48,069 nt of DNA from an uncultured Candidatus Saccharibacteria bacterium. GTDB lineage: Bacteria > Patescibacteriota > Minisyncoccia > Phycocordibacterales > Phycocordibacteraceae. Below, piece by piece: positions 9,623 to 18,551 of the stretch (positions are counted from its first letter, which is position 1; every line of letters begins with the position of its first letter). Position numbers and translations under genes: made by a program. The stretch covers positions 1 through 48,069 of the forward strand of contig CAYQCB010000001.1 in NCBI GenBank assembly GCA_964415875.1. Reading direction: 5' to 3'. The notes beneath the pieces are model-generated. The model worked only from the letters and a program-made list of their open reading frames with translations, did no database searches and was not told where the DNA came from.

Positions 9623-10357
9623 ATGATTGAAATACGTGACATCACCAAAACCTACGGAGCTGGCCCCGAAGCCTACACGGCGCTCAAAGGTGTTTCGTTT
9701 ACGGTAAACGAAGGCGAATTTGTGGCCATCATGGGCCCGTCTGGCAGCGGCAAATCGACCCTCATGCACATCATTGGTTGCCTAGACACGCCCACGAGCG
9801 GTTCCTACCGCCTTGACGACCGAGACGTGTCAAAAATGACCGACGACGAGCTTGCAAACATTCGGAAAGATAAAATTGGCTTCGTCTTTCAAGCGTTTAA
9901 CCTATTGCCACGCACCACGGTGCTGCGTAACGTGGTGCTGCCTCTTATTTACGCAAACATGCCTCCACACGAACGCGAAAAGCGCGCAGGCGAAGCACTC
10001 GAGGCAGCCGGGCTGCCCCGCGACCACTTCACGCACCTCTCGAACCAGCTCTCGGGAGGACAGATTCAGCGCGTCGCTATAGCGCGAGCACTCGTAAACG
10101 ATCCTTCGCTCATTCTTGCTGACGAACCCACTGGCAACCTCGACTCCAAAACGAGCCTCATTGTGCTTGGCACCTTGCAGAAACTCAACCGCGAACACGG
10201 ACGCACGATCGTACTCATCACGCACGAACCAGACATTGCCGAACACGCCAGCCGCATCATTCGCCTGCGCGACGGAGTCATCGTGTCCGACGAGAAAAAT
10301 GCCGCGGTGCGAGACGCCACGCTCGAGACGCGCCTCTACGACACGCAAACAACATGA
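9623..10357 (+). CDS. ABC transporter ATP-binding protein (MacB/LolD-like)
   Basis: Starts at [12 protein letters not shown]. Walker [10 protein letters not shown], signature LSGGQIQR, Walker B LILADEPT. Confidence 0.9.
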
Positions 10358-11589
10358 CCACCAACGATTTATTTGACGAAACGTATGCCGCTCTTTCGGC
10401 AAACAAAACACGCTCTGGTCTGACCATTCTCGGCATTGTTATTGGTATTGCCTCCGTCATTGCGCTCACGGCCATTGGGCAAGGGGCGCAAGACGCCATT
10501 CAATCCTCCATTAGTTCTTTAGGATCGAACTTGATCATGGTGACGCCGGGTGCCTCACGGCAGCTCGGCTTCGGCGCTTCAGGCGGTCGTGGCACCGCCA
10601 AGTCGCTCACACGTGATGATGCTACTGCGCTCTCTGGCGTGGCAAACGTCACTGCCGTTTCGGGAGAGTACGCAGGTCGCTACCAAGTAGCTGTGGCAGG
10701 AGCCAACACTAACGTGTCGGTCACGGGCGTTGACGCAACGTATGCAGGCATTCGCAACATTACCGTCGATCAAGGAGCTTTTTTGAGTGCTGCCCAGTCG
10801 CAACAACTTGCTAAAGTTGCTGTGATTGGTCCCACGGTTGCTACCGACCTTTTTGGCGCTGACGCCACTTCCACAAACCTCGTGGGACAGCGCGTGCGCA
10901 TCAACAATCTGCAGTTCACGGTCGTTGGCGTCACCATGCCCAAGGGCGGCAGCGGCTTCGGCAGCCAAGACGACGCGATTTACATTCCGCTCGGCACCGC
11001 ACTACAATACTTCGCCGGCAATGGAAATCACTACCTCTCCACTATCGACATAGAGGCAGCAGACCAAGGGGCGATGACACAGGTGCAAAACGATGCCACA
11101 GCACTCCTACTCTCTCGACACAACATTAGTGACCCCACCAAGGCCGACTTCAGCACGCTCAACCAGGCAGACATAGTCTCAGCCGCCTCAAGCGTGACGA
11201 GCACCTTCACCACACTTCTTGCGGCTGTGGCGGGCATCTCGCTCGTTGTCGGCGGTATTGGCATCATGAACATGATGCTTACCAACGTCACGGAACGCAT
11301 GAGAGAAATTGGTCTGAGGAAAGCAATCGGGGCGACGAAGCGCGACATTAACACTCAATTTCTTGCTGAAGCCATTGCACTTACCCTAGTCGGCGGCGTG
11401 ATTGGCACCGCTCTCGGGTGGGCCGCCGCCTTTGCTGTCACTGCGACAGGACTGGTGGCCGCGCAGGTGACCTGGTCTTCAGTATTGCTCGCCTTTGGTG
11501 TCTCTGCGGCCATAGGTATTGTCTTCGGCTGGTACCCGGCGCGGCGCGCTGCCGCACTCAATCCAATCGACGCACTTCGCTACGAATAG
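10354..11589 (+). CDS. ABC transporter permease (MacB periplasmic core plus FtsX domain)
   Basis: 411 aa. ATGA overlap with the ATPase gene. N-terminal TM helix, large extracytoplasmic domain and C-terminal 3-TM FtsX-like block ([11 protein letters not shown]). Confidence 0.85.
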
Positions 11590-11625
11590 TGTTGTGCAAA
11601 CCTTATTTACTTCACAAGCTCTACC

Positions 11626-12072
11626 ATGGAATCGAACACAAAAAAGAATTACGTTATTATTACCGTTATTTCTCTCGTCGTGGGTGTGGGCCTAGGTTAC
11701 GGAGGTGCTCACCTTTTGAACAAGCCCGCCGCACCCGGGGCGGGTGCGGCGTTTGCCCGCAGCGGCAACACGGCGGGCTTCATGGCACGCATGGGCGCAG
11801 GCACTGGCGCCGCCGGCAGCGGTTTCCTCTCGGGGACGGTCGCGAAGATGGACAGTTCAAGCATCACTCTCAACACGCGAGACGGCAGCTCGCACGTTGT
11901 CTTGCTCACGCCTTCCACCACCGTTTCTAAGAGTGTTACTGGCTCGCTCGCTGATGTTGCTGTAGGCAGCAACGTTCTCATAACGGGCACTACAAACTCG
12001 GACGGCAGTCTCTCCGGGTCTGTCATTCAACTCCAAAACGGCATGCGTGCCGGAGCTTCGCTGCCTAACTAG
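11626..12072 (+). CDS. small membrane-anchored / secreted protein
   Basis: 148 aa. N-terminal TM helix and Gly/Ala-rich linker, then a beta-rich region (SGTVAKMDSSSITLNTRDGSSHVVLL...SGSVIQLQ). Lies 36 nt after the permease gene. Confidence 0.5.
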   Translation: MESNTKKNYVIITVISLVVGVGLGYGGAHLLNKPAAPGAGAAFARSGNTAGFMARMGAGTGAAGSGFLSGTVAKMDSSSITLNTRDGSSHVVLLTPSTTVSKSVTGSLADVAVGSNVLITGTTNSDGSLSGSVIQLQNGMRAGASLPN

Positions 12073-12125
12073 ACAAGAAAAAAGCTCTAGGTTATAAAGA
12101 CTTCAGATATTATAAGGAGCACTTG

Positions 12126-12362
12126 ATGAGCAATTGCCAATTGTGCGGCACAAAAGTCGCCCAAGGTAACCGACATCGCCGCGGCGGATGCGCCACACGG
12201 GCACCGCTTGTGTGCCATAAGCCCTACATCCCCAACACGGATCCTACGGAAATTCTCGATCCCCGGGGGCAACCCGTTCCCGAGCTTGGCCTTCACAGTA
12301 AGAAAAGGAAGCAGCAAAAGCAGAAACCGCAACGCGGGCATCACTCCGCACCAAGACACTGA
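12126..12362 (+). CDS. small basic Cys-containing protein (hypothetical)
   Basis: AAGGAG sits 6 nt upstream of the ATG. 78 aa with a CxxC and a KKRKQQKQK tract. A strong intrinsic terminator follows directly. Confidence 0.4.
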   Translation: MSNCQLCGTKVAQGNRHRRGGCATRAPLVCHKPYIPNTDPTEILDPRGQPVPELGLHSKKRKQQKQKPQRGHHSAPRH

Positions 12363-12370
12363 GCGCAGCC

Positions 12371-12409
12371 ACGCCGTTCGGACACCAGTCCGAACGGCGT
12401 ACGTTTTTA
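12371..12409 (+). terminator. intrinsic terminator
   Basis: ACGCCGTTCGGAC-acca-GTCCGAACGGCGT (13-bp stem) followed by ACGTTTTTA. Confidence 0.75.
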
Positions 12410-12416
12410 TACAAAT

Positions 12417-12451
12417 GCCAAAAGGGCCGACGCGCTGCGTGCGTCGGCCCT
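12417..12451 (-). terminator. intrinsic terminator of a minus-strand transcript
   Basis: Minus strand reads AGGGCCGACGC-acgcagc-GCGTCGGCCCT followed by TTTTGG. Confidence 0.7.
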
Positions 12452-12726
12452 TACGAATGTCCAGACATGTTTGCTGATGGGTGACCCAACCCGGATCGCT
12501 GGCGGCGGTGTTTCTCCCCCGGCAGATAAGCTCTCCCAAATTAAGCGTGAGTTACGCACCGACGGCGCGTTCAGAAAGCGTGAGCTTTTTTCAGCAAACC
12601 GGAATGTCCGAGCAGTGCTTGTGCACTGTCTAAAGCTTCGGTGAGTGGGTGGGCCCACTGCTTTTTGACCTTAGCTGTTAGCACGGGCTCCCCAGCCCAG
12701 GACGACCGCGAACGGTCTTCACTCCT
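12452..12726 (-). ncRNA. candidate structured non-coding RNA of unknown family
   Basis: Bounded by a TTGACG-16-TATTGT promoter and the terminator at 12417-12451. No credible ORF. Local hairpins include GACCG-UUCG-CGGUC, CAGUGC-acaa-GCACUG and AGUGGG-ccca-CCCACU. Confidence 0.3.
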
Positions 12727-12731
12727 CTTTC

Positions 12732-12759
12732 ACAATAGATTCGTTTTTTGCTGCGTCAA
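12732..12759 (-). promoter_or_regulatory. putative sigma70-type promoter
   Basis: On the minus strand: TTGACG (12759-12754), a 16-nt spacer, then TATTGT (12737-12732). Confidence 0.4.
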
Positions 12760-12811
12760 CCACATGCGTGGGGACATTGCAGCTCTTTTTATTTTTGCTA
12801 TGCTTTACGTA

Positions 12812-12904
12812 ATGAAACGCGCATTCGCCATCATCATCGTCGTCCTGCTTGCGCTCAGCATGATAGGACTCGTCTTCCCTGCTCTCATGGCAGGAAATAT
12901 CTAA
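12812..12904 (+). CDS. possible 30-aa hydrophobic peptide
   Basis: MKRAFAIIIVVLLALSMIGLVFPALMAGNI forms a single TM helix. No clear SD. Followed by the terminator at 12922-12953. Confidence 0.2.
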   Translation: MKRAFAIIIVVLLALSMIGLVFPALMAGNI

Positions 12905-12921
12905 CTCCCGTCTTCCGCACC

Positions 12922-12953
12922 AAAAAACTCACCCCTTTGGGGGTGAGTTTTTT
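12922..12953. terminator. bidirectional intrinsic terminator
   Basis: AAAAAACTCACCCC-tttg-GGGGTGAGTTTTTT, with A/T runs on both sides. Sits 8 nt past the stop of the minus-strand operon. Confidence 0.8.
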
Positions 12954-12960
12954 GCGTTAC

Positions 12961-14334
12961 TCAAAAACGTCGCCTTAGATAAAAGCCGAGCGCCGCAAAT
13001 ACCACTGCAAGAACGATAAATGGTAGGACGTCACACATGCGCCCAAATACGAGACTTGCCCCCACGCCCACCACACTTGCCGCTACATAAAAAATGCTAC
13101 GACGAACTTCCCGCGCTCGAGGTGCCTCATACGCAACTCCTCGTCGCAAGTACTCGTAGAGGAGTTCTGCAAGCGCGGCTAGTACACAAAAGAGTATGAA
13201 GAACCAAACACAGGGGTTTTTGAGCCACGTAAAAGGTCCGGCGAGAGCCGCAGCTGCCGCGAGTTGATTGCCAGTAACGTGCGGTGCGTCCACCGTTGTC
13301 TGAGACGTGCTCGATGTACCCGTTTCTCCGCCCGAAGGAGACGTTGAGAATCCTGCAGTGCCCGTTCCTGAGGAGTGCGTCCCTGCTACTTGTAGACTAC
13401 CTGCGCCGGGCGCGGGAGCTCCTAGAGACTGCTCAGTGGCCGCAGTGAGCTCCCCCGGCAGAGCGAGTTGGTACTCACTACCAACTGTAGGCACTCCAGA
13501 GGGAGAGAGCTTTGACACCACGCGGAAGTCGTAGACTGTTCCGGGCACAAGCCCAGAAATGACCACGCGGTGCGCTGTAGTTAGCGATGCATCCTCGGTT
13601 GATTGATTAGGATACCCAAACAAAGGCCCCGCAGTGCTGAGTGTATATGGTCCACCAGAGCGCGCTCCGTACACTACGTAGGACGTGGCTGGTAAGTTAG
13701 TGCTCCAGGTAACCACTCCTGTCGTATCGGAGCGCGACGCGCCCGACTCGTTAAATACGGTAAGTGTTGGAGAAATAGAGCCGCCCGTAGAAAATGACGC
13801 CAACGTTGTATTGCCTGGAACCGTCGGTACCGTTACCGTGTTATCACATTGAACATCGCCGTCTCCAATTCCCACGCACAAATCAAAACCAACTGATTTG
13901 CCTTGATACGTGTTACTGGCGCCCGGATCAAAGGTCACGCTTGCATCGTACGCAGCCGTTGCACCGGGCACTACGCTGGTGAGCGGCACCCGCGAAGCGC
14001 TGAAGAAGTGTGCGAGCGTATCACTGTATAGAACAGTCGAGCCGCTTTGAATCGTCAGTATCAACATTGAAGCAAGTACGCTACTGTTTGTGTTTTCTGC
14101 TTGCACATATACCTGCTCGGAGTCGGTGGGAGAGTAATTATTCGTAACGGAAATGAGGCTCGTGGCTGTTGCACCAGGCGCAAATTGTAGTTGAGAAAAA
14201 AGTGGATTTGGGGCGAAGTTCACATCAAAACCCACACCCGCAGCGTGCGAGAGCGTCGGGCCGCACAGCAGTGTGAGTGCGAGGACGCTCGTGGTGGCAG
14301 CTACCAATGTAAATACGTTTCGTTTCATATTCAT
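12961..14334 (-). CDS. TasA/camelysin-fold paralogue with an FN3-like domain and a C-terminal 3-TM anchor
   Basis: Sec signal ending SHA/AG. APGATATSLISVTNN and NTYQGKSVGFDLCVG resemble the TasA core motifs. FN3-like VTWSTNLPATSYVVYG...GTVYDFRVVS. Ser/Thr/Gly linker followed by three hydrophobic helices. ATGA overlap with the upstream gene. Confidence 0.65.
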   Translation of the reverse strand: MNMKRNVFTLVAATTSVLALTLLCGPTLSHAAGVGFDVNFAPNPLFSQLQFAPGATATSLISVTNNYSPTDSEQVYVQAENTNSSVLASMLILTIQSGSTVLYSDTLAHFFSASRVPLTSVVPGATAAYDASVTFDPGASNTYQGKSVGFDLCVGIGDGDVQCDNTVTVPTVPGNTTLASFSTGGSISPTLTVFNESGASRSDTTGVVTWSTNLPATSYVVYGARSGGPYTLSTAGPLFGYPNQSTEDASLTTAHRVVISGLVPGTVYDFRVVSKLSPSGVPTVGSEYQLALPGELTAATEQSLGAPAPGAGSLQVAGTHSSGTGTAGFSTSPSGGETGTSSTSQTTVDAPHVTGNQLAAAAALAGPFTWLKNPCVWFFILFCVLAALAELLYEYLRRGVAYEAPRAREVRRSIFYVAASVVGVGASLVFGRMCDVLPFIVLAVVFAALGFYLRRRF

Positions 14335-17915: not shown

Positions 17916-18158
17916 AATGCGAGGATTATTATTTTGCCCCTTAGTAAGCCACAATTCCGTACACACCGTTTGTGCTCACAGAACCTAGAGAGAAGTGTAC
18001 GCCTGCATTTCGCAAGTGCAACGCGGGGTGTGGATAGCGGCATTTGCGTTTTTGCTCTTAATGTAGTATCGTTTTCTCACTCGCAGAGTATTAGAGCTTC
18101 AGACCGTCACGGTCGCAGGTATTCAGTTTCGGCGAGGTTAATCAGTTAGATCCATCAC

Positions 18159-18551
18159 ATGGACGAAGAAAACAAGCAAGCAGCAACCGGAGTACCGTCA
18201 GCAGTACAGGGCAACAAGCTCTATGTTGGCGGCATCCCGTACCGCTCGACGGAAGACGATCTGAAGAAGGCCTTTGAAGAGGCTGGCGCAGTTGTCTCCG
18301 CAAGCATTATCAGCGATCGCATGACGGGCCGCTCACGCGGTTTCGGTTTCGTCGAGATGGCCTCTGAAGCAGAGGCTCAGGCGGCAATCGACCGTTGGGA
18401 CGGTAAGGACCTCGATGGGCGCACGCTCTCGGTCTCCTTCGCACGCCCACAGGGTGATCGCCCTCCTCGCCGTGAAGGCGGTTTCGGAGGCGGTGATCGT
18501 GGAAACGATCGCGGTGGTTTCGGCGGCGGCTACGGCCGCGGCGGTTACTAA
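18159..18551 (+). CDS. RRM-type RNA-binding protein with an RGG/Gly-rich tail
   Basis: RNP2 LYVGGI and RNP1 RGFGFVEM. Tail GGFGGGDRGNDRGGFGGGYGRGGY. Confidence 0.85.
   Translation: MDEENKQAATGVPSAVQGNKLYVGGIPYRSTEDDLKKAFEEAGAVVSASIISDRMTGRSRGFGFVEMASEAEAQAAIDRWDGKDLDGRTLSVSFARPQGDRPPRREGGFGGGDRGNDRGGFGGGYGRGGY

Follow-up and report, generated by a model that had tools for sequence, protein, structure and literature searches.

A non-coding stretch within a lineage-restricted insertion of a Saccharibacteria genome as a candidate orphan small RNA

Introduction

The described systems that come closest to the locus analysed here are the orphan trans-acting sRNAs recognized by a promoter and an intrinsic terminator between genes, the 6S/Ms1-type RNAs, which bind RNA polymerase, SRP RNA, RNase P RNA and tmRNA, and the type I toxin-antitoxin pairs with divergent RNAs, such as tisB/istR-1 and zor/orz. 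Like orphan trans-acting sRNAs, the candidate considered here occupies an ORF-free stretch with promoter-like hexamers and a G+C hairpin followed by a U run, and it is oriented opposite to the flanking gene. In contrast to these sRNAs, it is known from sequence alone, its promoter is atypical and no seed or target was found; with its ~300 nt it would also be longer than most of them. The candidate resembles the 6S/Ms1-type RNAs in being a stand-alone unit of a few hundred nt with a terminator-like hairpin of its own, but it shows neither a rod-with-bubble fold nor a match to RF00013 and is unconserved even within the genus. Its size range is similar to that of SRP RNA, RNase P RNA and tmRNA; however, the source genome has both RNase P RNA and tmRNA elsewhere, and in the case of SRP RNA there is no match at the stretch and no detectable Ffh/FtsY partner. 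As in type I pairs, a gene for a hydrophobic peptide of ~30 aa lies beside a divergent non-coding unit. Unlike in such pairs, the candidate is without complementarity to the peptide mRNA, and the peptide gene is vertically conserved, has its own leaderless promoter and occurs in congeners all of which lack the RNA. We regard the locus as at most a new orphan intergenic sRNA candidate, that is, one of a known kind.

The window (the whole stretch of DNA that was analysed, 48,069 nucleotides) is contig C1 of the source genome, which comprises 0.73 Mb in 45 contigs and is 98% complete. Homologues of its MacB-type permease come with source names from Parcubacteria, Kaiserbacteria and Paceibacterota, which all belong to Patescibacteria. 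An earlier note had proposed that a promoter-to-terminator unit on the minus strand of this window encodes a novel structured RNA. We observed that the ~300-base stretch in question is non-coding, lies inside an insertion and is confined to one small clade.

Results and discussion

The candidate unit lies within an insertion

To the left of the stretch, a MacB permease gene, a gene for a 148-aa DUF5666-like protein and a 78-aa ORF all lie on the plus strand, and to the right the genes for a 457-aa and a 468-aa surface-type protein lie on the minus strand (Table 1). In the loci of 13 relatives, ~29-125 nt separate the start of the 30-aa ORF from the point where the tblastn match to the 148-aa gene stops, versus 742 nt in this genome, which implies that positions 12073-12790 are an insertion relative to the congeners. 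When the insertion was compared with the relatives' loci by nhmmer, blastn and tblastx, neither DNA nor six-frame similarity was found. The insertion is bounded by the 148-aa gene on one side and by the promoter of the small membrane-peptide gene on the other, and it contains the 78-aa ORF with its own strong terminator (12371-12400), plus the candidate RNA unit. It is carried solely by the source species and its closest kin, and it parts two genes that are neighbours in the relatives. No paralogues or pseudogene remnants were found in the same genome.

A replication terminus or dif site at the stretch was considered and rejected, as there is no GC-skew switch and no global change of gene orientation here. 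One copy of a 16-nt imperfect direct repeat (14/16 bases, TCCGCACCAA.A.ACT) was noticed at 12345-12360, where the 78-aa gene ends, and the other, 569 nt further on, at 12914-12929, where the small peptide gene ends; the repeat may reflect the insertion's origin, or be due to chance.

Table 1. Features of the locus (positions in the window).
Feature	Position	Strand	Basis or remark
MacB-type permease gene	10354-11589	+	
148-aa DUF5666-like protein gene	11626-12072	+	
Lineage-specific insertion, ~0.72 kb	12073..12790	.	spacing versus relatives; no similarity to relatives' loci
Orphan 78-aa Cys-rich basic protein gene	12126..12362	+	AAGGAG ribosome-binding site; homologues
Intrinsic terminator of the 78-aa gene	12371..12408	+	13-bp stem, T5; terminator scan, inverted repeat I3
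Terminator-like hairpin of the candidate unit	12414..12452	-	inverted repeat I4
Candidate RNA body	12455..12725	-	predicted 5' hairpins and multibranch domain
Promoter-like hexamers TTGACG-16-TATTGT	12732..12759	-	9/12 consensus matches; without TG extension
Extended -10 element TGCTATGCT	12796..12804	+	7 nt ahead of the small ORF's ATG; putative leaderless mRNA
Conserved 30-aa hydrophobic peptide gene (MKRAFAIII...)	12812..12904	+	BLAST, peptide alignments
Second promoter-like site ATGAGA-17-TATCAT	12888-12860	-	inside the peptide gene
Bidirectional terminator	12921..12954	.	15-bp stem, T6 on both sides; inverted repeat I1

The 78-aa ORF is taken to be a real gene, yet an orphan one, and is described here as a putative zinc-ribbon gene. 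Its product has the pattern CxxC-x14-C-x7-C and a Lys/Arg/Gln-rich tail, and the exact protein sequence is recorded from NCBI and Logan sources. Two homologues, both from Logan assemblies, are 84% and 72% identical to it, with the N-terminal Cys-rich half conserved. The N-terminus bears a faint resemblance to L28 (E 0.052), the true L28 gene of this genome being located at C15:4190-4387. Among the 221 congeners there was no credible homologue (2 marginal matches, E 0.005-0.008), and a protein alignment search of GTDB contigs and IMG/VR found none. The codon score of the gene is -0.16 per codon versus 0.25 ± 0.13 for real genes; such atypical codon usage suggests foreign DNA.

The stretch is kept in a related lineage with mosaic divergence

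Of 22 listed sequencing runs, from 11 studies, all were of DNA and none of RNA, and 20 contain at least part of the stretch. The contigs of four soil-metagenome runs (X5, X6, X7 and X9) were compared with the window over 11600-13400. The contig of run X5 is near-identical, with 2 differences in 12146-12759, and runs X6, X7 and X9 represent one related lineage containing the stretch. In this relative, the 148-aa gene differs at 47 of 200 positions of 11815-12014, mostly at every third base (~76% DNA identity), and 12015-12303 is replaced by 291 unalignable letters. Over the next 650 positions, 12304-12953, there are 25 differences and no listed indel, and beyond 12953 the sequences are unrelated. 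These data suggest that the full-length stretch has been retained in a second lineage.

When translated, the loose end before 12304 gives the residues of the protein P0129, which identifies P0129 as the relative's homologue of the 78-aa protein. P0129 has a frameshift near codon 66 and, by read-through, a length of 119 aa, and its tail corresponds to window positions 12335-12481 in another frame (35/49 residues identical). From this tail and the aligned contig rows we infer ~18 nucleotide changes of the relative in 12335-12481; together with ~5 changes in 12304-12334 and the change at 12712, ~24 of the 25 differences are explained. By subtraction, 12459-12920, which spans the RNA body, both promoter regions and the peptide gene, has the 12712 change plus at most one or two more. 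Identity to the relative is thus ~86% in 12304-12458 and, by subtraction, ~99.5% in 12459-12953, this step being derived from counts and not from sequence seen. No synonymous change is visible in the relative's peptide gene. At the protein level, the 78-aa gene is 72% and MacB 95% identical (390/411 residues).

The identity step at ~12459 fits selection on the RNA less well than a recent recombination tract, a clonal frame that borders on an imported patch, or a chimeric contig, and the mosaic divergence as a whole suggests recombination among co-occurring lineages or chimeric contigs. Since the step is sharp, the near-identity of the RNA body was not counted as functional evidence.

The putative promoter is of an atypical type for this genome

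The minus-strand promoter proposed by the earlier note is found at its place as far as the hexamers are concerned, but such sites occur at chance level and their type is rare in the genome. In 11500-13500, 2 promoter-like sites were found versus 0.9 ± 1.0 expected from shuffles, and the loose form of the -35/-10 type occurs 40 times in the genome versus ~33 expected (our own arithmetic). Most promoters of the source genome seem to consist of an extended -10 element (TGNTANNNT) that lacks a clear -35: within the 150 nt ahead of each of 354 long ORFs this motif had 72 matches in all, versus 16 inside these ORFs, and 34 of the 72 upstream matches begin 11-20 nt ahead of the start codon, a position which implies leaderless mRNAs. 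The RNase P RNA gene is preceded by TGTTATAAT. The -35/-10 type proposed for the candidate gave 3 matches in the 354 upstream regions, and no TGNTANNNT match was found on the minus strand within 12363-12960. The atypical type, the missing TG extension and the lack of a minus-strand TGNTANNNT together lower the credibility of the promoter.

The hairpin at the end of the unit

The strong intrinsic terminator that had been described for the unit holds in respect of its stem, which is a perfect 12-nt inverted repeat (12422-12433/12441-12452) with a 10-bp G+C core (12424-12433/12441-12450) and a 7-nt loop (12434-12440), followed by UUUUGG on the minus strand only. The U run contains only 4 U, and the hairpin is not listed by the terminator scan, because the scan requires at least 5 U of 8. 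The hairpin is placed tail to tail with the plus-strand terminator of the 78-aa gene, so that it would also separate convergent transcription. The RNase P RNA and tmRNA of the source genome likewise end in intrinsic terminators.

In the related lineage, the hairpin region 12414-12458 would have ~10 changes, located in the loop, tail and flank. The loop is changed at four of its 7 bases, whereas no change is visible in the 20 core stem bases; the probability of such a split between loop and stem by chance is ~0.002, computed for 9 changes. Four further changes lie in the tail and the U run, where UUUU would become CUUU. These indirect counts suggest that the hairpin stem is maintained in the relative. 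This same putative change of the U run (A>G at 12423) retains a G.U pair on the plus strand but not on the minus strand. The relative's plus-strand terminator of the 78-aa gene appears to have 2 loop changes and 2 stem A>G changes, the latter giving plus-strand G.U pairs.

Folding of the RNA body is marginal and no homologue was found

When the terminator was included, the z-score of the fold was -3.06 for the minus and -3.03 for the plus strand. Without the terminator, the z-scores were -1.76 on the minus strand (11/200 shuffles as good) and -2.23 on the plus strand (4/200), and these weak values mean that the "clean hairpins" of the earlier note are not clearly beyond what base composition gives. 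The predicted multibranch domain is closed by a helix at 12469-12477/12591-12599. Some details of the earlier description stood. The hairpin GACCG-UUCG-CGGUC is present at 12717-12704, although the pair closing its UUCG loop is G-C and not the classical C-G, and all four of the soil-metagenome runs compared read G at 12712, which turns the loop into CUCG. The repeated box was found in two GGACATTC copies, at 12609-12602 and 12462-12455, the second of which would be GGACGTTT in the relative via two changes. The central claim of a structured RNA is not supported: stability without the terminator is only marginal, and the only relative is almost identical to the source genome across the RNA body. 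No homologue is found beyond the immediate clade.

BLAST searches did not find the RNA body in 60 relatives, 221 congeners and 400 genomes of the order; the only matches to the stretch in those genomes were short hairpin-like ones of 28-45 nt, and in the order these were three matches of 28-32 nt (E 5e-4 to 9e-4) on the hairpin or on short G+C runs. No homologue was detected in all the fetched loci by nhmmer, blastn and tblastx, and none in 80 metagenome loci fetched by their neighbouring MacB permease. These 80 loci are only 56-66% identical, so there are no close relatives among them. The RNA body was also not found in phage and plasmid collections, and a search of GTDB contigs and IMG/VR with exact patterns was likewise negative. 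From the single sequence (5' 130 nt, predicted fold) we built a covariance model, which gave 1 match in the 150 congeners searched, at 21.7 bits and inside a 471-aa ORF; this match is not credible. Hence, the conservation outside the source genome that had been looked for ends with the immediate clade, as judged by the 221 congeners and 400 genomes of the order. In the literature searched, passages of PMC8321541 included, we found nothing on the candidate RNA or on SRP loss in the phylum.

A small RNA or a spacer

The reading that we prefer is that a discrete, orphan and lineage-restricted RNA is made from the minus strand and ends at the hairpin, which we consider possible, if somewhat short of probable. 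The ~300-nt transcript would run from about 12725 to the hairpin 12452-12422; its transcription, its start site and any function are what we infer from the features described above. The U run on the minus strand only and the back-to-back terminators plausibly favour an sRNA, as do the hairpin stem apparently kept in the relative while the loop changed, the ~390 nt without a called or conserved ORF that are retained in a genome of 0.73 Mb and occur in two lineages or more, the suitably spaced -35/-10-like hexamers, and the fact that the RNase P RNA and tmRNA of the source genome have terminators. Against an sRNA are the chance-level promoter, the short U run, the non-significant fold, the lack of homologues and the lack of a duplex signal (see below).

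Alternatively, the stretch could be a spacer brought by the insertion, either not transcribed or transcribed incidentally, with the hexamers present by chance and no functional RNA gene. The hairpin would then have its role on the plus strand, either by giving the 78-aa mRNA a second 3' stem-loop or by acting as a backstop terminator, and the change at 12423 suits plus-strand pairing. A promoter of chance level and atypical type, folding not above shuffles once the terminator is left out, the end of conservation at the immediate clade and the codon usage of the 78-aa gene, suggestive of foreign DNA, are all as expected of such a spacer. However, streamlined genomes seldom retain 390 nt of useless DNA, the stretch persists where the 78-aa proteins have diverged to 72% identity, and it is only on the minus strand that the hairpin has a U run behind it. 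We therefore hold this explanation, too, as a tentative one, serious enough to stand beside the sRNA without being probable.

It is unlikely that the RNA body together with the leaderless membrane-peptide gene constitutes a young cassette, i.e., a functional, structured and clade-specific RNA that is either extremely constrained or spread by recombination among co-occurring bacteria of the candidate phyla radiation (CPR). Such a cassette would be at least 99% identical (by subtraction) between the two lineages, with the neighbouring genes diverged by 15-25% in DNA; the sharp identity step described above stands against counting this as a sign of function.

The 30-aa peptide gene and a possible antisense role of the stretch

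The extended -10 element of the peptide gene is the sole TGNTANNNT match between 12363 and 12811, and in most of 20 relatives' loci a similar element, of the type T(G)nTAnnnT, precedes the ATG at the corresponding position. The peptide gene was found in ~60 of the 221 congeners (E below 1e-5) with 72-90%, mostly 75-90%, nucleotide identity, and the segment that contains it, 12791-12903, was the only piece of the locus conserved in the congener DNA search. In the relatives it is usually the last gene of an operon, preceded by the 148-aa gene or an ORF of ~490 aa. In the source genome the small ORF and the 457-aa gene have the terminator at 12921..12954 in common.

The vicinity of this gene offers another explanation, in which the stretch would be a type I toxin-antitoxin-like or antisense regulator of the peptide gene, with a minus-strand RNA made from the promoter at 12759-12732, or from the second site at 12888-12860 and then overlapping the peptide gene. 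The arrangement is suggestive in that a hydrophobic peptide gene adjoins a divergent non-coding unit and contains a second promoter-like site of the same direction. Nevertheless, none of the 221 congeners has the RNA body, in contrast to the ~60 that have the peptide gene, and no direct repeat of at least 9 nt is shared between the RNA body and the peptide mRNA (12790-12955). Duplexes of the RNA with six neighbouring mRNAs or start regions (the peptide mRNA, the 78-aa mRNA and the start regions of the 148-aa, MacB, 457-aa and 468-aa genes) were no better than those of 100 dinucleotide shuffles, with z-scores from -0.76 to +2.1 and a value of +0.6 for the peptide mRNA. As neither duplexes nor repeats link the stretch to the peptide mRNA, the type I toxin-antitoxin reading is unsupported, and we consider it quite improbable.

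Known RNA families, the SRP system and the RRM leader

The search against Rfam gave no family match at the gathering threshold in the whole window. The best Rfam 15 match in 12300-12900 at E up to 10 was RefA9, with 22.9 bits versus a threshold of 49 (E 0.41), and it covers the hairpin only. ARAGORN found nothing in the window. The by-eye exclusion of RNase P RNA, tmRNA and SRP RNA was upheld by the covariance-model searches. RNase P RNA was rejected with the genome's copy at C11:3034-3399 (125.8 bits) and tmRNA with the copy at C30:2983-3392 (85.7 bits); in the case of SRP RNA, neither RF00169 nor RF01854 has a match in the genome. 6S RNA was likewise rejected, with no RF00013 match and a minimum-energy fold predicted to be multibranch rather than a rod with a bubble.

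A divergent housekeeping RNA (6S-like), or a member of a wider undescribed class of structured RNAs, could in principle occupy the stretch, as no 6S RNA was detected in the source genome and the whole unit with its terminator folds at a z-score of -3. We find this very unlikely: no collection searched yielded a homologue by sequence or credibly by covariance model, whose single match lies inside the 471-aa ORF, the predicted minimum-energy fold does not resemble the rod of 6S RNA, and the insertion is absent from the congeners.

With regard to the SRP system, no real match to Ffh or FtsY (PF02978, PF00448, TIGR00959, TIGR00064) was found in the source genome, the only weak profile match being a P-loop ORF that by eye we take to be thymidylate-kinase-like. 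No ORF of this genome bears the DTAGR motif. An SRP RNA would hence have no partner in the source genome. RF00169 had no match in 41 genomes of the genus; the matches of PF00448 in the order were confined to P-loop fragments, in 10 of 61 genomes; and PF02978 matched none of the 121 genomes sampled across the phylum, with 14/14 controls positive, although for the genomes beyond the source a blind spot of the search's first-look filter is possible. We take these negative results as provisional, since they contradict the view that CPR bacteria encode Ffh and FtsY.

Elsewhere in the window, the gene for an RRM-type RNA-binding protein has a conserved 5' leader of ~95 nt at 18068-18161 (+), which was compared with the relatives L013, L020, L021, L043-L046, L048, L052, L055, L057 and L058. 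Its outer stem CUCGC...GCGAG is invariant. The sequence of its central hairpin varies between species and by eye still pairs, and this hairpin is absent in one species. RNAalifold reported no compensatory pair because the variable hairpin is misaligned, and there was no Rfam match at E up to 10. The leader could be autoregulatory.

Coding potential of the stretch

We looked up 12 ORF versions of the stretch exactly (both strands, alternative starts) in a collection of ~15 billion proteins. None was present, whereas the neighbouring real genes, including those of the 30-aa peptide and the 78-aa ORF, were; the non-coding nature assumed earlier is in line with this result. The 83-aa GTG ORF (12407-12658) does cross the hairpin and continue past it, as had been pointed out, but it is not the sole ORF, since there are also frames of 37 aa on the minus strand and of 57 and 50 aa on the plus strand, and a minus-strand ORF of 150 aa begins inside the stretch. 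The codon scores of the stretch's frames range from -0.28 to +0.07 per codon (real genes 0.25 ± 0.13, 5th percentile 0.03), a measure that is weak here because the real 78-aa gene scores low as well. That the stretch encodes one or more small proteins, e.g., from the 37-aa ORF at 12684-12571 or the 83-aa ORF at 12658-12407, is highly improbable: the frames are open, and those of 37 and 57 aa have codon scores of 0.07 and 0.05, close to the 5th percentile given above, but all 12 versions are missing from the protein collection, the hairpin-crossing 83-aa ORF has no homologue that we could find, neither a ribosome-binding site at usable spacing nor a leaderless start is present, and Pfam and NCBIfam gave no match on any frame.

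Conclusions

The small genomes of CPR/Patescibacteria are thought to have little regulation. If the stretch is transcribed, its product would join a very short list of candidate regulatory RNAs from these bacteria, and it would indicate that such RNAs can be young and clade-specific. The by-products of the analysis, namely the extended -10 promoters with leaderless mRNAs, the conserved peptide gene, the RRM leader and the undetected SRP, may be worth more than the candidate itself.
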